A DNA stretch of 64,000 nt from Oligoflexia bacterium (GCA_015231955.1 JADGAN010000027.1:7582-71581); one strand, 5' to 3'; positions 910 to 57,252 are shown, counted from the stretch's first letter. Translations and numbers: made by a program. The notes: generated by a model not told the origin, from the letters alone.

Positions 910-936
910 CTATCGGTATTTTTATTCGAGATTTGA
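910..936 (-). promoter_or_regulatory. sigma-28-like promoter candidate (TCAA-N15-ACCGATAG) for the gene starting at 843
   Basis: Read on the minus strand: TCAA (933-936), 15-nt spacer, ACCGATAG (910-917), 66 nt upstream of the ATG. Member of a motif set recurring in this window. Confidence 0.3.
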
Positions 937-962
937 GGATTTGAGGATTTGAGTGATTTGAG
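930..962. repeat. tandem 8-mer GATTTGAG x4 (three perfect in tandem, the fourth after a 1-nt spacer)
   Basis: Direct reading: GATTTGAG at 930-937, 938-945, 946-953 and 955-962, in the divergent intergenic region between the 843(-) gene and fic. Confidence 0.9.
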
Positions 963-1024
963 TGACATGCACTTGTGGTTTCGCAGCCACTAAAGACGCA
1001 CATGCAAAAGTAAAAATTTGCCTG

Positions 1025-1080
1025 AAAAGTTGCCTGGCAACTTTTGGGAATTGCCGCAATACTTGCGCCAATTCCCAAAA
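1025..1080. promoter_or_regulatory. two adjacent palindromes (candidate operators or hairpins) upstream of fic
   Basis: AAAAGTTGCC-T-GGCAACTTTT (1025-1045) is a perfect 10+1+10 palindrome. TTTTGGGAATTG (1042-1053) pairs with CAATTCCCAAAA (1069-1080), a 12-bp inverted repeat with a 15-nt spacer that adds 3 more pairs. Confidence 0.5.
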
Positions 1081-1171
1081 ATCGGCACACTTCGCTCCAC
1101 TCGCCCTCCAGTCAGATATTTCTTTGATGAATGATTATTGAAAGAATAGCGAAAGAATGTTAAACTGAGTA

Positions 1172-2236
1172 ATGATTGAATTTAAACCCCACATTTATAC
1201 CATTAACTCGAATGTTGTTAACCTGATTGCAGAAATTTCTGCCTTACAGGGCGAACTAAGGACGTCCATTAGGGCCGTCAGGGATGACTATAAAATTTAC
1301 ACTCTTGCGAACGTCGATGCCGTCCATTATTCTACCAAAATTGAAGGGAATAAACTGACAAGAGATCAGGTAACAAAGGCCCTTGAAGGAAGTAAAAAAA
1401 AAATTGCAGTCAATCATGACATCCAAGAAGTGATTAATTATTCAAAGGCAAGAAATTTTGTTTTTGAGCAAACTCGTCAAAAAATTGATATTGATTTTAT
1501 TCTTTCAGTCCACGCTCAGTTGTTAGATAAAATTGTAAAAGGAAAGCTCAAGGGACATTTCAGAGAGGCCCAAAATGTCATCAAAGATTCTAGTTCTGGA
1601 AATATCGTCTATTTGCCTCCTGAAGCATCGGATGTTTTACCTTTGATGAAAGGGCTTTTAAGGTACGTTCAAAAAAGTCAGATTGAAAAAATAAGCCCCC
1701 TTGTTCTTGCTCCAATTTTTCATTATGAATTTGTAAGCATTCATCCCTTCATGGACGGAAATGGAAGATTGGCCCGTATTATTACCAATGCAATTATTGC
1801 TATTGGAGGATACGATGTTCATAAATATGCCGCTCTTGAAAAACAACATGAGAAAGAAAGAGCACAATATTACCATTCATTAAGGTCTCTTCAATCTCAA
1901 AATTACTATGACATTCCTTACTCGCAAAATATTACAACTTGGATTATTTATTGGCTGAATTGTTTAAAAGAAACATATAAAGAGGCCATCTCCAGAGTTT
2001 CTCCACTTTCTAAGTCAATTGTATCTAAAGAGATTATTCATAATGATCGATTAACAAGGGCCGTTTCACTTTTTAAACGCCATCTAACAATCAAGGCCGC
2101 TGACTATGCCATTATGATGGGACTTGAAAGGACTCAGGCAGTTGCTGATTTAAATATTTTATTAAAGAAGAAAATAATTGAGAAAATTGGAGGAGGAAGA
2201 TCAACTATCTACAAGATAAAAAATGGTTCTATCTGA
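1172..2236 (+). CDS. Fic/DOC family protein (probable AMPylase), class II autoinhibited type, with a C-terminal wHTH-like tail
   Basis: Canonical Fic motif HPFMDGNGRLAR. The upstream N-terminal STKIEG matches the inhibitory (S/T)xxxE(G/N) motif. Confidence 0.9.
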   Translation: MIEFKPHIYTINSNVVNLIAEISALQGELRTSIRAVRDDYKIYTLANVDAVHYSTKIEGNKLTRDQVTKALEGSKKKIAVNHDIQEVINYSKARNFVFEQTRQKIDIDFILSVHAQLLDKIVKGKLKGHFREAQNVIKDSSSGNIVYLPPEASDVLPLMKGLLRYVQKSQIEKISPLVLAPIFHYEFVSIHPFMDGNGRLARIITNAIIAIGGYDVHKYAALEKQHEKERAQYYHSLRSLQSQNYYDIPYSQNITTWIIYWLNCLKETYKEAISRVSPLSKSIVSKEIIHNDRLTRAVSLFKRHLTIKAADYAIMMGLERTQAVADLNILLKKKIIEKIGGGRSTIYKIKNGSI

Positions 2237-2503
2237 ACTTCCCAATTGGTTTTTAAGTGATTCCCGATAAAAACGCAGATGCAAAAGTAGGGCAACGACT
2301 GATGAATCAATCCCCTCTATCATAACGCAACTGAGTGCTTGCATTTTGTATGCACACACTCATGAAAATATTGATCATCCTCTGCAACCGCGATAGTATG
2401 CGGCAGGTTGTTATTACCAACTACTTAGACTTGTCAACAACTCGCCCTTAAAGGAGCAAGCTTGTGAAAACAAGTTCGAGGTTGATGAGGAGGCCTTTAG
2501 AAA

Positions 2504-2707
2504 ATGCAGAAGTTGATGAAAGATAAAAAACTCCAATATCAGGCACTAAAAAAAATATCTCCCGCCAAAAGGGTCTCGATTGCATTGGATTTGATCTACT
2601 CTGCCAGAGAATTAAAGCGGGCCGCACTACGACTAAAGTACAAGGATGCAACACCAGAAGAGATCGATGCAAAACTCAAGGAACTAATTCGTTATGCAAC
2701 AACATAA
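2504..2707 (+). CDS. small hypothetical protein (67 aa), 14-nt overlap with the downstream nucleotidyltransferase gene
   Basis: Strong RBS GAGGAGG about 9 nt upstream of the ATG. Helical, charged sequence. Overlap with the next ORF suggests translational coupling. Confidence 0.55.
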   Translation: MQKLMKDKKLQYQALKKISPAKRVSIALDLIYSARELKRAALRLKYKDATPEEIDAKLKELIRYATT

Positions 2708-3269
2708 TCTTTTTGCAATCTTTGTCGACCGCTTAAATAGCGCTCAAATTCACTATGTAGTTACCGGTTCTGTGGCCGCAATTGCCTATGGTGAACCTCG
2801 AGTGACCCACGATATCGATTTGGTGGTCGATTGTGATCAGGCCCAGGTACAAAAAATCGTAGAGGCATTCCCCATTGAAGAGTTCTATTGCCCTCCCATG
2901 GAAACACTGATCATCGAGATCAAACGTAAAGAACGAGGCCATTTTAACTTAATCCATCTGGACACAGGATTTAAGGCAGACATCTATCTGGTTGGAGACC
3001 AAGATTTTCTGGTATGGGCGCTCGACAATGCTCAAACAATTGATTTTCTCAATAGCAAAATGAAGGTTGCTCCTGTTGAGTATGTCATTGTCAAAAAATT
3101 GGAGTACTACCGAGAAGGCCGCTCTCAAAAGCACCTAAGCGACATCAAAAATATGCTCAACATCTCCCAAGAGGAGATCGATTTTACAAAGCTTCAATAT
3201 TTTATCTCCCAGTTTGGTCTTGAGAGCATCTTTAAAAAAGCACAAGAGTTTGAGATCGATTCAATATAA
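2694..3269 (+). CDS. minimal nucleotidyltransferase (pol-beta superfamily) fold protein
   Basis: TGSVAAIAYGEPRVTHDIDLVV fits the hG[GS]-x9-13-Dh[DE]h NTase signature. The C-terminal YYREGRSQKHLSDI resembles a conserved motif of uncharacterised small NTases. Confidence 0.7.
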   Translation: MQQHNLFAIFVDRLNSAQIHYVVTGSVAAIAYGEPRVTHDIDLVVDCDQAQVQKIVEAFPIEEFYCPPMETLIIEIKRKERGHFNLIHLDTGFKADIYLVGDQDFLVWALDNAQTIDFLNSKMKVAPVEYVIVKKLEYYREGRSQKHLSDIKNMLNISQEEIDFTKLQYFISQFGLESIFKKAQEFEIDSI

Positions 3270-3276
3270 AAGTAAA

Positions 3277-3339
3277 GTGCTGGCCGATTTTCGGGACTCA
3301 CCACAATACTCGCACCAAGTCCCAAAAGTCGGCTGGCAC
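3277..3339. repeat. REP-like inverted pair forming a 22-bp hairpin
   Basis: GTGCTGGCCGATTTTCGGGACT (3277-3298) pairs with AGTCCCAAAAGTCGGCTGGCAC (3318-3339): 18 Watson-Crick pairs, 3 G-U pairs that work only in the plus-strand RNA, and 1 mismatch. The right arm is a variant of the 30-mer at 36109 and 47580. Confidence 0.7.
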
Positions 3340-13670: not shown

Positions 13671-13776
13671 GTAACTGCTCACACCCCTCAACCTTCACCT
13701 CTCAACCAAATGCTGTTAGCTAAGCAACTTTCAGCATCCGGTAGAGGGTAGATGGCTGAAGGGTGTGAGCAGTTAC
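13671..13776 (+). mobile_element. 106-bp MITE, copy 1 (IS66-type termini)
   Basis: Perfect 16-bp terminal inverted repeat GTAACTGCTCACACCC...GGGTGTGAGCAGTTAC. Identical to the copies at 19899 and 49210. No matching TSD here; it abuts an IS66 remnant. Confidence 0.9.
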
Positions 13777-14304
13777 CTTCTTTCTAGTCTCACTCTTCAG
13801 ACTTTTTTCCTGAGATAAATCTATACCACAGTTTGAACATTCTGCTGGAGTTGTCACTTCTTCATTGGTGATGTTGCGAGTGTTTTGGATTTGATTTCCC
13901 AGATTAGCTCTTTGACCGGAATTCTTATTACGATTGCCATTAGAACCATTATTTTTTGATGGCGGCAGGCCACTATTGCTAGAATTCTTTCTGGTTTTTT
14001 TCTCAAGTAGAACCGCAACAACAATTTCCAAGATTGACATCATTGATTGAATAAAAAATCGTACGTCTGCATTCAGGTTTTTCGTTTTAAGAATTGCCTC
14101 CGATTCCTGCTGCAGTTTTGTAATTTTATCTCGTATCGAATCCTTGCTCATAAAGATCAGTATTACTTATTTTAATCAAGAGGCCCAGTTAAATTTTAAG
14201 GCCTAAATCAATTTTTTTCGAAGAAGCTGAAGTGGAATAGCTGACAGCTATTCAGCTGATAGCATCTGGATGAAAGTTGATGGTTGAAGGGAGTGAGCAG
14301 TTAC
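13777..14304 (-). mobile_element. IS66-family IS remnant: left end plus 5' part of the transposase gene (truncated)
   Basis: The minus-strand ORF from 14151 encodes a leucine-zipper-like N-terminus, then KNSSNSGLPPS...GQR...PAECSNCGIDL, which is typical of IS66 TnpC N-termini. A related IR GTAACTGCTCACTCCC ends at 14304. The ORF runs into MITE copy 1 and lacks the DDE domain. Confidence 0.75.
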
Positions 14305-19744: not shown

Positions 19745-19898
19745 TCTGCTCTTTTTTATAGCTTAACCGAAACTGCCAAATCAAATGATATAGATCCCTT
19801 TCCCTCTGAAAGGATTCTTCAAAAAATAAATTTTCAATTTTACCCTATTGTAGGCATTAACAAAACAGGTTGGCATGTACCGCTTACATTCCCAATAC
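19745..19898 (+). pseudogene. IS66-family transposase C-terminal fragment
   Basis: The plus frame reads ALFYSLTETAKSNDIDPF, matching the conserved YSL(I/V)xTAKxNGxDP motif of IS66 transposase C-termini. No start codon and no DDE region. Confidence 0.6.
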
Positions 19899-20004
19899 GT
19901 AACTGCTCACACCCCTCAACCTTCACCTCTCAACCAAATGCTGTTAGCTAAGCAACTTTCAGCATCCGGTAGAGGGTAGATGGCTGAAGGGTGTGAGCAG
20001 TTAC
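19899..20004 (+). mobile_element. 106-bp MITE, copy 2
   Basis: Identical to copy 1. Flanked by the direct 8-bp duplication CCCAATAC (19891-19898 and 20005-20012). Confidence 0.95.
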
Positions 20005-20239
20005 CCCAATACAACAAATAGCAAGTTGAATACCATGTATTTTATCCAATTTTGCAGTTAAAAATGATTGCTTATCATTAAAACCGTTTTCGTTTGTAAA
20101 AACAATGTTTTCTAAAAGCATGTTATTGAGAGATGAATTGAATACATAGATTAGCATTAACACTACCTTTATTCCTACCATGTTTGCAAAGGAGTGAAAT
20201 TTATTAAAAATATTTTGCTTTTAAATCAACTAATATATT

Positions 20240-32156: not shown

Positions 32157-33186
32157 TACCGCTGTAGTCTTGGCCGCAGGAACCTTTGGTAGCTCCATGG
32201 CCTCTGTCCTCTCCAACAATTTCAAGCAAGTGATTGTCAAAGTTCGTTCTCCGGAACTCTATCAAACGTTACAAAAAGGGGCCAACCCGCTCTATCTTCC
32301 AGGAATAAAACTTCCACAAAATATCACTCCGGCAATTAGCTGGGAGGAGGTTTCCGACCTCACCCAAAGTAACGCCCATGTGGAATTAATCGTAAATGGA
32401 CTACCCTCGCACGCACTCTCTCTCTTTGCAGAAAAGTACCACTATCACCATATACTCTCCTATTTGGAACGAGGAATTCCCATCGTCTCCCTCACCAAAG
32501 GAATTAATCAGCATAACTTAAAGTTGCCCGATGATATTCTCTTTGACCTCTTTCGCAACTATGAAGACCTCTTTACCTTTCTCTCCGGCCCCTCCTATGC
32601 AGAGGAGATCATTGAGGAACAGATTACACTTGTGTCACTTGCAGGGAAATCACGCAACACCATCATCAATGTTGCCAACATGTTAAACACCAACTACTTT
32701 CGCGCCTTTCCCACCTATGACATTAAAGGGGTGCTGCTGGGAGGTGCACTCAAAAACGTTCTCGCTATCGCCGCAGGGATTCTTGAGGGCCTTGGTTACA
32801 ACCATAACACTCGTGCAGCGCTGATCACTGCTGGAATTTCCGATATGCTTCGTTTTGGTCAAGTGTTAAATGCACGTCCCGAAACCTTCTATGGCCTTAG
32901 CGGGATGGGAGATCTTATCCTGACCACAACTGGAACATTAAGTAGAAATAAGTGGTTTGGAAAAGAGCTCGCAAAAGGACGCTCACCCGAGGAGATCTTA
33001 AGCTCACAACGAACTGTCGTTGAAGGCCATCAAACCAGCAAGGCCGCCGAGAAATTGGCCCAAAAATACAACATCAAATGTAGGATTTTTAACGGCGTCT
33101 ATCGTATCCTCTACGAAAACAAAAATCCACACTCTGTGATCGAAGAGCTCTTGAGTTACTCTGCTAAAGTACATACACTATTTTAA
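32137..33186 (+). CDS. gpsA: NAD(P)H-dependent glycerol-3-phosphate dehydrogenase
   Basis: GGALKNVLAIAAGI signature and N-terminal dinucleotide fold. Confidence 0.9.
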   Translation: MNTKQYNTAVVLAAGTFGSSMASVLSNNFKQVIVKVRSPELYQTLQKGANPLYLPGIKLPQNITPAISWEEVSDLTQSNAHVELIVNGLPSHALSLFAEKYHYHHILSYLERGIPIVSLTKGINQHNLKLPDDILFDLFRNYEDLFTFLSGPSYAEEIIEEQITLVSLAGKSRNTIINVANMLNTNYFRAFPTYDIKGVLLGGALKNVLAIAAGILEGLGYNHNTRAALITAGISDMLRFGQVLNARPETFYGLSGMGDLILTTTGTLSRNKWFGKELAKGRSPEEILSSQRTVVEGHQTSKAAEKLAQKYNIKCRIFNGVYRILYENKNPHSVIEELLSYSAKVHTLF

Positions 33187-33188
33187 TT

Positions 33189-33294
33189 GTAACTGCTCAC
33201 ACCCCTCAACCTTCACCTCTCAACCAGATGCTGTTAGCTAAGCAACTTTCAGCATCCGGTAGAGGGTAGATGGCCGAAGGGTGTGAGCAGTTAC
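33189..33294 (+). mobile_element. 106-bp MITE, copy 3 (two substitutions)
   Basis: Flanked by the 8-bp duplication TTTTAATT (33181-33188 and 33295-33302). Sits 2 nt after the gpsA stop and 47 nt before the next start. Confidence 0.95.
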
Positions 33295-33341
33295 TTTTAA
33301 TTTTGATCCTAATCTAATCCTGATTGGACAAGGAGGCCACC

Positions 33342-36108: not shown

Positions 36109-36138
36109 AGAGTCCCATTAGTCGGCTGGCACTTTTTT
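36109..36138 (+). repeat. REP-like 30-mer AGAGTCCCATTAGTCGGCTGGCACTTTTTT
   Basis: Exact 30-bp identity with 47580-47609. Both copies lie between convergent gene ends. Confidence 0.85.
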
Positions 36139-45652: not shown

Positions 45653-45705
45653 GGGGCCAGCACACTTTTATTAACAAACCTAGTTAACGAAAGTGTGCTG
45701 GCCCC
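45653..45705. repeat. long perfect hairpin (16-bp stem plus inner 5-bp stem)
   Basis: GGGGCCAGCACACTTT (45653-45668) pairs with AAAGTGTGCTGGCCCC (45690-45705). The loop contains TTAAC/GTTAA. No T-tail follows. Lies between the 43330 gene stop and the start of ankyrin paralog B. Confidence 0.8.
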
Positions 45706-45731
45706 AATGCCCACATGAGGAGGATGTCTAT

Positions 45732-47456
45732 ATGTACAAAAAGAAGAGAGTTCTTTGTTTCATCTGGCGATTTAATTCCATGAGATTACTATTGTGGATA
45801 TTTGGACTATCTATTTGTCCTATCACATGTATTTGGTCCATAGACTATTATCAAGGAGCAGATTCATGTAGGGATTCTAAAGAAAAGGAGAGAACAACGG
45901 CACCAAAATCTCCATACCGATTTTTATCCGACAAAAAACAAAGCCAAGGAAGTACAGGGACTTGCTCTTTTCATGCAGGAGCTGTGGTTCTTGAGGCGCT
46001 TATCAATTTGCAACAACCTTCCCCAGAACCAGTTGGCATAAGTGTCGTCGACGCCATGGAACAGCTTGGTCATTGTTCTAAAAAACAGATTGAGTCCGCT
46101 AAAACAAGTCCCGTTAAATTTCTTTTAGACATGAGAAAAAAATCAAGTGTCAGGCCCTATGAAAAGAGTGTCGAGCAGCACTACGGCGAACTTTGCACTA
46201 ATGAGATCCATAAAATTTCTCAACCCATTCCACAAAATACGGTTGATAATTTTTTACAACTTGAAGGAAAAGTGAGCGAATTAGGCCAATCGAATATTCC
46301 TATTCCCAAATATAACATTGAGACTTGGGATCTTAAGGAAGATGATAAACCAGAGAAAATATCGGAAGACCTTATCTCCTATTTCAACCAAGAAGGTGCA
46401 CTGCCACTGGCTTTTACGACTTGCATGGAGGATGATAAAAGAAGTGGAGTTTGCTTAAAGCCCCATGCAATAACACTGGTTGGAGTAAGAAAAGTCATTT
46501 GTAGTGACGGAAAATTTTTTTATACAGGAATATTCAAAAACTCGTGGGACAGAGCAGTGAAAATGCTTAATTTAACTACAGTGCTTAATGGAATGATAAA
46601 ATATAAGATGGGGTATTCTACAGTTCGTCCATGCAAAGACGCTGAGTGTTTAGACCCACCTATTTTGGATACGATGAAATCAACCAGACTTTATCACTTG
46701 GCCGATGCGGGGGACCTCGATGGCATCAAAAAAATCTTTAAATCAGGCGAGGATGTGAATGTTCCTGGTTCGTATGGACGCACTCCTCTGTACTGCGCAA
46801 CTTCGGCGAGAAATATAGAGGTGGCGAGATACTTGCTTACTCAAGGAGCAGATCTGAATATCGCTGCAAGTAATGGATTTACTCCTCTGAGGGATGCTGC
46901 TCTCTCAGGGGATCTAGAAGGAGTTAGATTTTTAGTAGAGAACAAAGCAGACATCAACAAGGCAGATAGCAATGGCAGGACTCCTCTGCTTAATGCTGTG
47001 TACTCAGGTAACGTAGAAGTAGTTAAATACTTGCTAGAGAAAGGAGCAGATCCGAATATGCTGGATAATGCTGGATGGACTCCACTGCATTATGCTACGG
47101 CCGCGGGTCATCTAGATATCGTCACACTTTTGCTAGAGAACAAAGCAGAAATTAACCAGGCAGATGGCCAAGGTATAACCCCTCTGTTTAAAGCTATGTC
47201 AGCTTCACCAGAGGTGCTGAAATACTTGCTTGAGCATAAAGCAGATCCGAATATGCAGAGTAATGGATGGACTCCGCTGAATTCTGCTGTGGCCGTAGGT
47301 CGTCTAGATATCGTCACACTTTTACTAGATAACAAAGCAGACATCAACAAGGCCGATGCTAGCGGCATGACTCCTTTGCATTATGCTCGAAATGGAGGTC
47401 GTCAAGATATAGAAAAATATTTGCTTGATCATGGAGCTAAGGACGGCCCCCCATAA
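45732..47456 (+). CDS. secreted papain-like cysteine-peptidase-like domain fused to about 7 ankyrin repeats (paralog B)
   Basis: QGSTGTCSFHAG (Gln 6 residues before Cys), PHAITLVGV and FKNSWD correspond to the papain Q/C/H/N(SW) positions. C-terminal ANK repeats. Start set at the ATG at 45732. Confidence 0.8.
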   Translation: MYKKKRVLCFIWRFNSMRLLLWIFGLSICPITCIWSIDYYQGADSCRDSKEKERTTAPKSPYRFLSDKKQSQGSTGTCSFHAGAVVLEALINLQQPSPEPVGISVVDAMEQLGHCSKKQIESAKTSPVKFLLDMRKKSSVRPYEKSVEQHYGELCTNEIHKISQPIPQNTVDNFLQLEGKVSELGQSNIPIPKYNIETWDLKEDDKPEKISEDLISYFNQEGALPLAFTTCMEDDKRSGVCLKPHAITLVGVRKVICSDGKFFYTGIFKNSWDRAVKMLNLTTVLNGMIKYKMGYSTVRPCKDAECLDPPILDTMKSTRLYHLADAGDLDGIKKIFKSGEDVNVPGSYGRTPLYCATSARNIEVARYLLTQGADLNIAASNGFTPLRDAALSGDLEGVRFLVENKADINKADSNGRTPLLNAVYSGNVEVVKYLLEKGADPNMLDNAGWTPLHYATAAGHLDIVTLLLENKAEINQADGQGITPLFKAMSASPEVLKYLLEHKADPNMQSNGWTPLNSAVAVGRLDIVTLLLDNKADINKADASGMTPLHYARNGGRQDIEKYLLDHGAKDGPP

Positions 47457-47579: not shown

Positions 47580-47609
47580 AGAGTCCCATTAGTCGGCTGG
47601 CACTTTTTT
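47580..47609 (+). repeat. REP-like 30-mer, second exact copy
   Basis: Identical to 36109-36138. Lies between the stop of ankyrin paralog B (47456) and the stop of the minus-strand FecR-domain gene (47614). Confidence 0.85.
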
Positions 47610-47613
47610 ATTT

Positions 47614-49116
47614 TTACTTTGTAACTCGCGGAGACTGAGTAGTAGTAATTGTTGTTGCTGTTGTGCCTGGGGTATTAGTTATCGTACCTCCAGTATTGAC
47701 AGTGGCCCCTTCCCTGTTACTAACAGGATTACTAACAGGGGAAGTGGTGGGGATGTTGGTAGTGGTAATAGTAGTAGTAGTAGTAGTAGGGACTGTGCTA
47801 AGAGTTGGATTTGTTCTTGTCGTATTGACAACAGGTTTTGGAGGAGGAGGAGGTGGTGGTGGTGGTGACTGTTGCTCCTGAACACCTAATACTGGCGATG
47901 GAGGCGTTGGCAATTGCACCCTTTGAGTTACGACCGGAGCAGCGGCCGGTGGCCTGGTATCTCTTTTCTCTTCTTCTCGCTGCAGACCTTCGCGTTTTTG
48001 TTCTGTCACTTTCATCTGCTCTTGGATCTGTTGAATATTAGCACGTATCTCCTCTTTGCGCTTGATCTCATCGACACTTCCTTGCACCTCGATACTACTA
48101 TTAATCCTCTGGTTGCTCTCAAGTACCTGCTGATTTTTCTTCTCGCGCTCTAACATTTGTCGATTTCTCTCCATCTCTTGCATCAATCTTTGCTCTTGCA
48201 AGGATCGCTCTACTTTTTTCTTTTCCAGCTCCCTGGTAATATCTGTGCGCATTTTCTCTTGCAACATGGTCATTCCATCAACATATTCACGTTTTTGCAG
48301 TTGGGGTTGAGCTTGTGTTTGAGCTGGATTCGCTGTTGTTGATCCCGATTTTTTTATTAAAAGTTTAGAAAGATCCACTTCAAGTCTCTCTTTCAGCGCC
48401 TCTGGTTTCAACCGAATCGGAACTGGTACACTGCTGGAAGCACCTCGAAGCTCTGTCTGTTGTTGCTTTTTGACTAATGCCAAACTATCGCCTTGCCGAT
48501 TAAGCTCCTTATTAAGTTCTCGCTCCATGGCCATTTTGGAGATACCACTTGCGCCCATCTTCACCGCCGCGATCGCTACCACTCCACTAAAGGTTGTAAG
48601 CGAAGTTAGTTGTTTACGTTCATCAAACTCCACTTGAAAATCGGTGCCTCTTACTCCCATCGCCGCATTGGCAGTCACCATAAAAAAACGGTGGCGAACT
48701 TCCTGCTCACCCTCTTTTTCAGCACCTTCTTTACTATTATTTAGCTTTCTTACCTGGGAGCGAATCTTTCCACTAATTAATCTCACAATGCTGGTCGAGC
48801 TGGCACTCGTTCCCAATACCGGAATCTTCATCTTGGAATTTTTTCCAATCACCATGATGGTTTCATCGTCAAGTTTGATCTTGGCCACACCATTATCTCC
48901 CGTAGCAATGACATCATTTTCAGAGACCACCTCTCCGATTGCCAGCGGTGTAGTCTCTTGATTAGAGTTGCTCTTGACAAAGACCTCTCCTCGTACCATC
49001 AGCACTTTGGCATAACCACCACCTGAAGTAGCAGTAGCAGCAGCAGCAGCAGCAGCAGTATAAGCAATGGTTGCGCTCAAGCACATAGCAATTAGCAAAA
49101 CCAATAGTCGTCCCAT
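47614..49116 (-). CDS. secreted FecR-domain protein with coiled-coil, poly-Pro and Thr-rich C-terminal regions
   Basis: Signal peptide. GEVFVKS...LAIGEVVSENDVIATGDNGVAKIKLDDETIMVIGKNSKMKI resembles a FecR domain. Also PPPPPPPPPP and TTTTTITTT tracts. Confidence 0.7.
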   Translation of the reverse strand: MGRLLVLLIAMCLSATIAYTAAAAAAATATSGGGYAKVLMVRGEVFVKSNSNQETTPLAIGEVVSENDVIATGDNGVAKIKLDDETIMVIGKNSKMKIPVLGTSASSTSIVRLISGKIRSQVRKLNNSKEGAEKEGEQEVRHRFFMVTANAAMGVRGTDFQVEFDERKQLTSLTTFSGVVAIAAVKMGASGISKMAMERELNKELNRQGDSLALVKKQQQTELRGASSSVPVPIRLKPEALKERLEVDLSKLLIKKSGSTTANPAQTQAQPQLQKREYVDGMTMLQEKMRTDITRELEKKKVERSLQEQRLMQEMERNRQMLEREKKNQQVLESNQRINSSIEVQGSVDEIKRKEEIRANIQQIQEQMKVTEQKREGLQREEEKRDTRPPAAAPVVTQRVQLPTPPSPVLGVQEQQSPPPPPPPPPKPVVNTTRTNPTLSTVPTTTTTTITTTNIPTTSPVSNPVSNREGATVNTGGTITNTPGTTATTITTTQSPRVTK

Positions 49117-49171: not shown

Positions 49172-49209
49172 AGTCCACTTTTTTCTCCCACCTCTATCGT
49201 TCTATAAAT

Positions 49210-49315
49210 GTAACTGCTCACACCCTTCAGCCATCTACCCTCTACCGGATGCTGAAAGTTGCTTAGCTAACAGCATTTGGTTGAGAGGTGAAGGTTGAGG
49301 GGTGTGAGCAGTTAC
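49210..49315 (-). mobile_element. 106-bp MITE, copy 4 (inverted orientation)
   Basis: Exact reverse complement of copy 1. Flanked by the 8-bp duplication CTATAAAT (49202-49209 and 49316-49323). Confidence 0.95.
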
Positions 49316-49394
49316 CTATAAATGATATTTATTGTTTTCTCGGAAAAAGTGCACTCCATTGAGATCTCTCTATTTGCTAGATAAAATAGAGATT

Positions 49395-54840: not shown

Positions 54841-57252
54841 CTACTGCTTTGTTGCCACTGTCTTTGCAGCTGCCTTTGCAGTTATTTTGGCCATGATTAA
54901 AGATACCATTTCAGCATCATTACGAGCTTCCGCAAGTTCCAATGGAGTTTGTCCACTCTTTAGGCCAAAATTGGGATCGATGCTCTCCATCGCTAAAAGG
55001 TTTTTGACCAGTTCTCGGTTGTTCGTCTCCAAGGCCCAGTAAAGTAGAGTTGCCTCACCAACTTCTCCCTCTTTTTTAACATAGACATTGGGATCTTTTA
55101 GAAACTCTTTGGCCATGGTGGTAATCGCCTTGCTTTTATTGCTCTCTAAGATGATCTGTAGTGGTGACTTCCCTGCTTTATTCATTGAAGTAGTCAAGAT
55201 CTCTGGGGTCACGCCAGGAATTTGTAATAATTTTCGACTACTCCCAAAGAGACCTTGAGTAAGTGCGAGGTGCAGTGGGGTATTTCCTTGAGCATCGACA
55301 TTACTGCTGTTGTTCATGGAGGCCCCATATTGTAGGAGTAAATCTAGGATGGACATATCGTATTTATTACTTGCAAGCGATAAAGGAGTGGCCCCCGCTA
55401 GGTTTGCACTATTGAGTTGATTTTGTACCACTTCTGGAATGCTTAGTAAGTATTGCACCAATTCTTTGTTATTGCCTTGGATTGCCGCCATTAAAAGGGT
55501 GTTGCCACTTAAGTCTCTTTTGTTTAAATCCAATTTGGGATTGGCAAAGGAAATTATTTTTTTAACACTATCGCTATATCCTAAATAAGCGGCAAAAAGC
55601 GCCGGAGGAACTAGGCCTTGATGAAAATTACTGACAAAGCTTGGATCGCAGTATTTAAGCACGATCTCAAGCGTTTGGGGATTTTCGCTAGCAATTGCCA
55701 GCAAAAGTGGCGTACTACCATCGAGAAGCTCCAGGTTACAAATTTGTTTTCCAAATTGCACGAAATTTTTCTCAAGCTCAAGGTTATTTTCAACTGCAAT
55801 ATTATAAAGGATACTCTTCTCTAAATATTGAAAACTGCCGGCAACATTAGGAGTTGCTAGCAGATCAATGACAATATCAAAATAGTTGTTTCTAACTGCA
55901 CTTAATACTGGGGTTAATCCATGAGGGCCAGAGAGGATCTCCCATGGGGGACGATTGCTGGCAAGTGTTTGTGCGCTATATTTTGCCATCGCTGTTTGAT
56001 GTTTTCCAATAGCACTACTTAACATTTGTGCAACAGTGGTATCGGTAATGAATTTTGCATCTCCATCGGGAGTAGCAAGAAAGGCATTCATACCATTAAA
56101 GTTATTAGTGGCGGCCACACTATACATGGTCTCCCAATGCATATTGCTTTTTACGTAGGGGACACAGCTGATTCCGGGGATACAATCCTCTATCGTCGTC
56201 ACACAATTATACTGTTTGAAAATATCGTAAAAAGGTTTTGCCAAAAAAGTTCCTGTACACGCACTTCCCCAGCTATTGCGAATATTAACCAGCTCTACAA
56301 TTTTATTACTTTTATCGGCGCTATTTGTACAAAGCATTTTTTTATGTCCAGTAATGGCCACTTCGTGTCCACCGATAGAGATCGAAGCGGGGCGACCTAG
56401 CGTCAGTGGGTAAAGCAAACCTTTTTTGATAGCATCGTCACCACTTTGGGCCGTATAACAATTATGAACAATGTTGAAAGGAGGTAGCTTGACCATTTTG
56501 TCACTGGGGACTGGCCTTGGAAAAGCACAGCGAGCAAGCTGTTCCGTTATAGGATTTTTATGCTCAGTCACTCCATAGATATTGTTCTCAGAAAACGGAT
56601 TATGGATCTTAGTTGTTCTAAGGGCATTCACCATCGCTGGAAGATCAATGTACTCTGCTGGTAATTTGGTCTTGTTGGCAATTCTTGCGCTCTCCACTTG
56701 GCAAACTCCCGGATCGAGAGTTGCGCTGGAGGCCTGTAAAGAGTCACTAATTTTTTTTGCTTCCACCAAGTAGGTGGCCAGAGGTGAGATCCCACTTCCC
56801 GATCTATCCATGCAAGTTTGTTCATAGGAGAGAGTCTGGGGATTTTTCAAAACCACCTCTCCCGCCATTCGCAGTTGTTCTAGTGTATTTTGAGTTCTTC
56901 CACCCTCTAAAAGGTATCCACCATTGCCACCAATAATGACACTATTTAAATCAATCTCTTGATCAGCAGTAATAACAGCTTTTTCTTTGAGAAAGTGCTC
57001 TAATTGCACTTTAGCACTACATGCATAACAAGTGCCGATGCGATCTTGGTTGATTTGTGCTATCTTTTTATCTTTATGTTCGAGATCAACAATATAATTT
57101 TCATCAGCAAGCTCTTTACAATCGGTGCGATGAAACTCTTGATAAAGAAAATCGTTACACTCTTCTGCTTTTATCGCAACTGGAAGCGAGATCACCGCCG
57201 CTAGGGCCATAAAAATTAAATGGTGAGCTTTTGTTTTTTTTGAAGCAATCAT
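54841..57252 (-). CDS. secreted papain-like cysteine-peptidase-like domain fused to degenerate ankyrin repeats (paralog C)
   Basis: Signal peptide. QDRIGTCYACSA (Gln 6 residues before Cys), GGHEVAITGH and IRNSWGS. C-terminal half has G-TPL--A ANK-type repeats. Confidence 0.8.
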   Translation of the reverse strand: MIASKKTKAHHLIFMALAAVISLPVAIKAEECNDFLYQEFHRTDCKELADENYIVDLEHKDKKIAQINQDRIGTCYACSAKVQLEHFLKEKAVITADQEIDLNSVIIGGNGGYLLEGGRTQNTLEQLRMAGEVVLKNPQTLSYEQTCMDRSGSGISPLATYLVEAKKISDSLQASSATLDPGVCQVESARIANKTKLPAEYIDLPAMVNALRTTKIHNPFSENNIYGVTEHKNPITEQLARCAFPRPVPSDKMVKLPPFNIVHNCYTAQSGDDAIKKGLLYPLTLGRPASISIGGHEVAITGHKKMLCTNSADKSNKIVELVNIRNSWGSACTGTFLAKPFYDIFKQYNCVTTIEDCIPGISCVPYVKSNMHWETMYSVAATNNFNGMNAFLATPDGDAKFITDTTVAQMLSSAIGKHQTAMAKYSAQTLASNRPPWEILSGPHGLTPVLSAVRNNYFDIVIDLLATPNVAGSFQYLEKSILYNIAVENNLELEKNFVQFGKQICNLELLDGSTPLLLAIASENPQTLEIVLKYCDPSFVSNFHQGLVPPALFAAYLGYSDSVKKIISFANPKLDLNKRDLSGNTLLMAAIQGNNKELVQYLLSIPEVVQNQLNSANLAGATPLSLASNKYDMSILDLLLQYGASMNNSSNVDAQGNTPLHLALTQGLFGSSRKLLQIPGVTPEILTTSMNKAGKSPLQIILESNKSKAITTMAKEFLKDPNVYVKKEGEVGEATLLYWALETNNRELVKNLLAMESIDPNFGLKSGQTPLELAEARNDAEMVSLIMAKITAKAAAKTVATKQ

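Follow-up and report, generated by a model that had tools for sequence, protein, structure and literature searches.

GTAA ends are part of the definition of the IS66 family in ISfinder. Canonical IS66 elements contain three genes (tnpA-tnpB-tnpC) in 2.5-2.7 kb and are bounded by the inverted repeat (IR) GTAAGCG. An IR starting with GTAA together with an 8-bp direct repeat (DR) was given as the signature of the family, and GTAA termini, the 8-bp DR and the DDE_Tnp_IS66 domain are shared by the canonical elements, the element described here and its proposed parent lineage, with the domain belonging to the transposase-encoding members (PMC11946415). The ISBst12 group, which includes ISBst12 of Geobacillus stearothermophilus and ISDge4 of Deinococcus geothermalis, is closer to our case. 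For ISDge4 a 449-aa transposase, the terminal inverted repeat (TIR) GTAACTGCTCAGCA and an 8-bp DR were reported, and transposition was observed (PMC12898284).

MITEs are well known as a class, so one more of them is no conceptual surprise, and their bacterial examples have been connected with several IS families. MITEAba12, for instance, is reportedly a bacterial MITE derived from an IS family other than IS66. MITEPsy1 (IS5-like), MITEPye1 (IS1182) and the Cardinium MITE (IS982) are bacterial MITEs of other IS families (PMC3189936, PMC11578231, PMC9769881). These elements of other families are noncoding, about 100-250 bp in length and preferentially intergenic, with TIRs copied from a resident IS, a target-site duplication (TSD) of the length typical of the parent and a long stem-loop, and the 106-bp element described here resembles them in all these respects. 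It differs from them in its probable parent, an IS66/ISBst12 element, and in the way its movement was recognized, which was the comparison of two MAGs instead of a trapping experiment. No description of an IS66-derived MITE was found in the literature searched, and absence there is no proof of novelty; the element offers a clean and coordinate-exact example for a parent family not encountered in the MITE literature searched.

Copies of the 106-bp element and their insertion sites

The window, which is the whole stretch of 64,000 nt that was analysed, is part of the MAG of an uncultured Oligoflexia bacterium (locus tags HQK52_) and contains four copies of the element. Three of them are identical 106-mers, located at 13671-13776 (copy 1, plus strand, used as reference), 19899-20004 (copy 2, plus strand) and 49210-49315 (copy 4, inverted, minus strand). 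The remaining one at 33189-33294 (copy 3, plus strand) has two differences from copy 1, at position 39 (A to G) and position 87 (T to C). All four locations, with three identical copies and one carrying two substitutions, had been proposed in the first-pass annotation of the sequence and were exact on re-examination.

The TIR of the element is perfect over 16 bp and continues imperfectly out to 45 bp. The terminal 16-mer GTAACTGCTCACACCC occurs eight times in the window, which accounts for both termini of all four copies, and one more copy of it, with a single mismatch, lies on the minus strand at 14289-14304; in shuffled sequence none would be expected. Either end of the element begins with GTAACTGC, so the GTAA start of the IS66 family is present at both. 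When the arms are paired with each other, 36 of 45 nt match (80%), and the 106-mer was folded as RNA into one long hairpin of -59.3 kcal/mol (z = -9.9) and as DNA into a structure of -31 kcal/mol (z = -8.4). The perfect 16-bp repeat, its imperfect extension to about 45 bp and the hairpin formed by the whole element, all postulated before, could therefore be recovered. The G+C content of the element is 50%, against 41% for the window. Coding capacity is absent, as had been supposed, since the sole ORFs overlapping the 106-mer enter from the flanks, and 106 bp is far below the size needed to encode a transposase.

Perfect 8-bp TSDs flank three of the copies. They are CCCAATAC for copy 2 (19891-19898 and 20005-20012), TTTTAATT for copy 3 (33181-33188 and 33295-33302) and CTATAAAT for copy 4 (49202-49209 and 49316-49323), each at the place where a duplication had been read earlier. 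No TSD was found at copy 1, the flanks of which differ (GAATTAGG vs CTTCTTTC).

A sister MAG (locus tags HQK50_, GCA_015232255.1) was used for comparison. From about 3.3 kb onwards, the whole of the window is collinear with contig JADFZY010000001.1 of this MAG (147.7 kb). The segments are 99.1-99.9% identical, and the collinear 74 kb of the sister contain two copies of the element, compared with four within the 64 kb of the window. The first-pass annotation had proposed a comparison with empty sites in related strains, and precise empty sites were found for copies 2 and 4. At the site of copy 2 the alignment passes from 19898 to 20005 with an 8-bp overlap, and the element is missing from the sister sequence, cattCCCAATACaaca, in which CCCAATAC is present once. 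At the site of copy 4 the sister has cgtcCTATAAATgata, where the element is again missing and CTATAAAT is present once. Around both sites the sister genome shows no other local change. Copies 1 and 3 are common to both MAGs and identical in sequence between them, and copy 3 has its two substitutions and its TSD in both.

Since a single 8-mer is present at each empty site, the flanking 8-mers are genuine duplications, and the two near-identical genomes provide natural before and after alleles that establish this directly; the three duplications read earlier are in this way backed by two empty sites. The difference between filled and empty sites also means that the element changed location after the split of two very close lineages, and copy 3, for which the substitutions and the TSD agree between the two MAGs, represents an older insertion. 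As two of the four sites are empty in a near-identical genome, the 106-bp element has probably moved very recently. The recent mobilisation claimed previously is thus substantiated by two insertion polymorphisms between genomes 0.1-0.9% apart; from the sequence comparison we infer their direction, namely two new insertions in the HQK52 lineage.

The probable parent lineage and its remnants in the host

The right end of copy 1 abuts exactly a 528-bp fragment (13777-14304, minus strand), here called IS-A, which consists of the left end of an IS66-family (ISBst12-group) element and the N-terminus of its transposase. The left terminal IR of IS-A, GTAACTGCTCACTCCC, runs from 14304 to 14289 and matches the MITE 16-mer at 15 of 16 positions. 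It is followed by a 137-nt leader and an ORF that starts at 14151 and runs for 125 codons, precisely up to the MITE terminus. Over its first 65 nt the fragment is 75-78% identical to each arm of the MITE. A 5' fragment of an IS66 transposase with a related IR had been noticed beside copy 1 before, and it could now be specified as the 125 N-terminal codons behind an IR with one mismatch. The ORF that runs from IS-A into copy 1 (13720-14151, minus strand) is recorded as a 143-aa 'hypothetical protein' (MBF0314783.1, HQK52_15285) on a 74,360-bp contig, with its last 18 residues encoded by MITE copy 1. Elements of this kind interrupt the assembly of MAGs and give rise to small spurious ORFs, of which HQK52_15285 is an example. 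The IR-bounded segment 13671-14304 (634 bp) was considered as one composite element and rejected, with flanks that have no TSD and with other IS-A fragments that join differently.

The 125-aa IS-A peptide alone matched no Pfam or NCBIfam model. It has 43 homologues, each of 219 aa or less. One of these, P0002, is 68% identical to the peptide and matches NF033517 with its last 124 residues at 55.7 bits, which is below the whole-protein cutoff. In the protein collection, at least five 5' fragments of IS-A belong to HQK52 (04690, 06570, 11645, 15285 and 21945) and two to HQK50, all of 105-153 aa. An intact cognate IS-A transposase was not seen in the HQK52 and HQK50 protein records, where every copy is a 5' fragment and where the MAG assemblies have gaps, and no full-length match more than 64% identical to the IS-A fragment occurred among the best 120 of more than 4,000 family members. 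On a 9.4-kb HQK50 contig (L114) a terminal IS-A fragment, 99.8% identical over the same 528 bp, enters a different repeated element with the tip GTAAGTTTAAACTGG, a tip found again at the opposite end of the contig. Breaks in the assemblies thus fall within IS copies, so an intact IS-A could be missing from the MAGs.

The two ends of the L114 contig (1-54 and 9319-9371) are inverted copies of the tip of this repeat, GTAAGTTTAAACTGGATTCCAG, with GTAA at its start as well, and at one of them the repeat interrupts IS-A 4-5 nt from the position of the MITE/IS-A junction in the window. In the IS-A fragments P0001, P0006 and P0044-P0048 the authentic frame is lost within about 8 nt of codon 125-127, or at codon 148, and the continuations differ between fragments, including the junction at 13777 of the window. 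An insertion hot spot may exist inside the IS-A transposase gene at about codon 125-127.

A family scan of JGI metagenomes yielded 19 full-length transposase genes of 472-483 aa, the N-termini of which align with IS-A residues 1-125 at identities of up to 62%. Neither tnpA nor tnpB accompanies any of the 19. About ten relatives with both ends mapped are 1512-1645 bp in length and have a single ORF. Complete relatives as a whole measure 1.5-2.3 kb and end in GTAACTGCTC(A/G/C)C, with GTAACTGCTCAC as the end sequence of the lineage and about 1.5 kb as the typical length. L116 and L128 scored 223 and 238 bits on the model NF033517 'IS66 family transposase', and together with the more distant L109 they span 223-243 bits (cutoff 180) and also match PF03050. 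The terminal 12-16 nt are common to the MITE and the complete elements L109, L116, L128, L134, L135 and L140. A perfect 8-bp TSD was found for L140 (ACTAAATT) and for L109 (GCCCATCT), the latter being a complete element of 2260 bp in an alphaproteobacterial MAG. L109 also contains, 5' of its transposase, a 219-aa passenger ORF (1083-1742) with a DPPY motif, methyltransferase-like and without Pfam match.

A profile search with the full-length family at E <= 1e-10 yielded more than 4,000 proteins, the majority of them encoded on contigs of 1.5-2 kb. The nearest plasmid-borne relatives are IS66-family transposases of Bacillus, Geobacillus and Deinococcus, at about 35% identity. On account of the single ORF, the length of about 1.5 kb, the ends and the 8-bp TSDs, the relatives were placed in the ISBst12 group. 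The IS66-type ends proposed earlier are accordingly upheld by matching ends and 8-bp TSDs in complete relatives, with the assignment refined to this group. The 8-bp duplication is common to the ISBst12 group and the MITE, and the TIR of ISDge4, GTAACTGCTCAGCA, matches GTAACTGCTCACAC of the MITE. Members of the parent lineage are about 1.5 kb in length with one transposase ORF of about 450-480 aa carrying PF03050/NF033517, whereas the MITE has 106 bp and no transposase. A canonical three-gene IS66 was rejected as parent, the relatives being single-ORF elements without tnpA and tnpB; moreover, after GTAA the IR of the MITE reads CTGCTC, but that of canonical IS66 reads GCG.

A third IS66-family element, IS-C, was identified in the sister MAG about 4-5.6 kb past the position of the window end (L151, 16120-17636). 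It has 1517 bp and is of ISBst12 type, with perfect 13-bp IRs, GTAACTGCTTACC, in which 11 of the first 13 terminal nt are as in the MITE. Its transposase is split by one frameshift into ORFs of 189 aa and 315 aa. The second of these reaches 227 bits on NF033517, and the N-terminus of the transposase has only about 20% identity with IS-A. No TSD was found for IS-C, and the contig ends 55 bp further on. IS-C indicates that an IS66-family transposase gene with similar ends exists in the host lineage. A search for a full-length IS66 element with the same termini, suggested in the first-pass annotation, led outside the host to complete relatives sharing the terminal 12-16 nt, and in the host lineage to IS-A fragments and the frameshifted IS-C.

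Origin and movement of the element

Taken together, we regard the 106-mer as a recently mobile MITE derived from a single-ORF ISBst12-group IS66 element that has decayed in the same genome, with a probability of about 0.88. In the proposed mechanism, the 16-bp TIRs GTAACTGCTCACACCC would be the sites recognized and cleaved by a DDE transposase supplied in trans, presumably one of the ISBst12-type lineage. Staggered cuts 8 bp apart at the target, followed by gap repair, would produce the 8-bp TSDs. Copies 2 and 4 would be new insertions in HQK52 copied from a master of the copy 1 type; the source is read in this way because both match copy 1 and not the diverged copy 3.

The arms of the MITE bear on how it was formed. 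Aligned with the outermost 45 nt of the IS-A left end, each arm has 36-37 of 45 positions in common with it. The two ends of 11 complete relatives agree with each other over only 13-17 nt, and when positions 17-45 are compared end against end, 6-14 of 29 match in these relatives, compared with 20 of 29 in the MITE. Both arms of the MITE thus resemble a left IS end over 45 nt, in contrast with the 13-17-nt IRs of full elements, and judged by these alignments a left end of the parent may have given rise to both, by fold-back around a subterminal hairpin. Alternatively, the parent could have had unusually long IRs.

Both junctions of copy 1 fall exactly on MITE termini, yet its flanks are unlike each other, and the IS has lost its 3' part. 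The missing TSD is attributed to the truncated IS which copy 1 abuts, and it probably resulted from intramolecular transposition with an adjacent deletion. Such a deletion would have joined the right tip of copy 1 to codon 125 of IS-A and removed the remainder of the IS.

The sites that are empty in HQK50 might instead have been emptied there, by precise excision through slippage between the 8-bp repeats, which would make the element an old and possibly immobile relic. A near-perfect palindrome with a 45-bp stem flanked by direct repeats would suit such a process, as this geometry favours RecA-independent loss in the precise excision of Tn5 and Tn10, and the failure to find an intact transposase, either among HQK52 and HQK50 proteins or in the best 120 of more than 4,000 family members, fits an immobile element as well. 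However, two independent and perfect events would be required within about 64 kb of genomes that are 0.1-0.9% diverged, and the polymorphic copies equal copy 1 but the shared copy 3 has two substitutions, so that copies 2 and 4 appear younger; excision is thus considered unlikely, and the element would even then remain a MITE with true TSDs. Which transposase moved the element is a separate matter, and here a minor but serious possibility is mobilisation not by IS-A but by a distant IS66-family transposase of the IS-C type that recognizes the terminal dozen bases. The terminal GTAACTGCT-AC is conserved among elements whose transposases are only 35-60% identical, IS-C combines perfect 13-bp IRs (GTAACTGCTTACC) with a DDE region scoring 227 bits on NF033517, and every visible copy of IS-A is truncated. 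Yet the copy of IS-C that was seen is frameshifted and without TSD, putative cross-recognition of ends differing at 2 of 13 positions would be needed, and intact IS-A copies may be missing from MAGs whose contigs end inside repeats. It is scarcely conceivable that the element is a non-transposon repeat (a REP/BIME palindrome or a CRISPR-like repeat) or an assembly artefact. It is indeed palindromic, short, intergenic and repeated, but exact 8-bp TSDs with empty sites, ends in common with transposase-encoding elements and irregular spacing and orientation all speak against such a repeat, and an artefact would hardly give the identical structure in two independently assembled MAGs. REP/BIME palindromes, which are RAYT-associated, have 20-40 nt and neither TSD nor IS-type TIR; with 106 bp, 8-bp TSDs and IS66-type TIRs, the element was rejected as a member of that class.

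The gene neighbourhood of the copies bears on whether the element has instead been co-opted as a terminator, an insulator or a structured RNA, with such a host function driving its spread or retention. The very stable hairpin would suit this role, and so would the positions of two copies, with copy 1 lying 16 nt downstream of a stop codon and copy 3 lying between a gpsA-like gene, the stop codon of which is 2 nt away, and a radical-SAM gene that begins 47 nt further on. Copy 4, however, is located between divergent genes (a FecR-domain gene and one for a 430-aa hypothetical protein), at 93 and 79 nt from their start codons, and copy 2 has the nearest stop codon 155 nt upstream and the next start 362 nt downstream. 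By these measured distances, the earlier statement that all copies lie within a few to tens of nt of genes is true for two of the four, copies 1 and 3, and not for copies 2 and 4. A scan for terminator consensus at copies 1, 3 and 4 found no intrinsic terminator, a promoter scan gave nothing meaningful, and the element has no T-tract, with its 3' flank being whatever the TSD supplies. In the window, Rfam 15 gave nothing at the gathering threshold and, below it, look-alikes of eukaryotic miRNA precursors, which are expected of any long hairpin. Copies 2 and 4 are missing from a sister genome that is otherwise locally unchanged, so the two newest copies are dispensable. The terminator or insulator role suggested in the first-pass annotation was not borne out, and in view of the missing terminator signal, the gene distances and the absence of copies 2 and 4 from the sister genome, host function was treated as unsupported speculation and is judged very unlikely. 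Recent mobility as an ISBst12-derived MITE is the preferred reading.

Related short elements and other differences between the two MAGs

The 28-nt core of the MITE had no match in JGI metagenomes or IMG/VR, and the whole 106-mer had none in PLSDB plasmids. The terminal 16-mer, with one N allowed, was found in at least 110 stretches in genomes of many phyla, and the 106-bp MITE itself is present in none of the 110 listed loci. Of the 110 stretches listed, 18 have a short element (47-257 bp) enclosed by these ends, and among these 18 a TSD match of at least 7 of 8 positions was found for 11, which was perfect for 7.

Short elements with GTAACTGCTCAC-type ends occur in at least six other bacterial lineages. 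They were found in the Caldilineaceae MAG CHL15 (Caldilineaceae/Litorilinea; 103 bp), the gammaproteobacterial MAG Bco_10 (about 140-144 bp), the Bacteriovoracales MAG APA_bin_12 (74-127 bp), Thiohalomonas (135 and 257 bp), Saccharibacteria (167 bp) and Alphaproteobacteria (253 bp). The loci of 74-253 bp considered here are L010, L091, L110, L027, L088, L031, L099, L102, L066 and L103. Some of the elements are multi-copy, with the 103-bp family present at nine or more loci of one Caldilineaceae MAG. In Bacteriovoracales (L028, L099 and L104) short elements are nested in one another.

These short elements share with the MITE the terminal 10-12 nt, the 8-bp TSDs and strong hairpins, but the similarity ends at the termini, which marks them as independent derivatives. 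Short elements with the same ends in other lineages indicate that MITE formation from the ISBst12-type lineage is recurrent. Tentatively, and with considerable doubt, the tip GTAACTGCTCAC could define a largely undescribed class of MITEs that has originated repeatedly in different bacterial phyla. The 106-bp MITE itself might then be cross-mobilised, through a tip of about 12 nt, by a transposase other than that of its closest relative, and it might have been formed by fold-back duplication of one IS end instead of internal deletion. If this is true, a poorly understood transposase family would need no more in cis than 53 nt of a left end. The 106-bp element also offers a minimal substrate, with no more than 53 nt at each end, for the study of a transposase family that is little characterised mechanistically.

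Several other features of the window were noticed, some of them in the comparison with the sister MAG. A 2.4-kb segment (923-3330) has no counterpart in the sister MAG, where 162 bp take its place; the segment encodes a Fic-family protein (1172-2236, MBF0314773.1) and a 191-aa hypothetical protein (2694-3269). The adjoining positions 1-922 are 91.6% identical to the sister, compared with about 99.7% elsewhere, and the two parts together look like a variable island or a recombined segment.

A 30-nt motif, AGAGTCCCATTAGTCGGCTGGCACTTTTTT, is present at 36109-36138 and 47580-47609, in both cases between convergent gene ends and with a T-run at its end, and it may be a shared terminator-like signal. 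The FecR-domain protein (47614-49116, minus strand) has 500 aa in the window and 497 aa in the sister MAG. The segment from 39.2 to 49.2 kb contains 77 gap positions relative to the sister MAG, so indel variation is concentrated in or near the ankyrin and FecR genes. Three large ankyrin-repeat genes are located at 36143-38068 (minus strand), 45693-47456 (plus strand) and 54841-57252 (minus strand), with internal tandem repeats of 99 nt and of about 200-400 nt. So high a density of ankyrin genes is unusual in free-living bacteria, and the organism may live in association with a host or as a predator.
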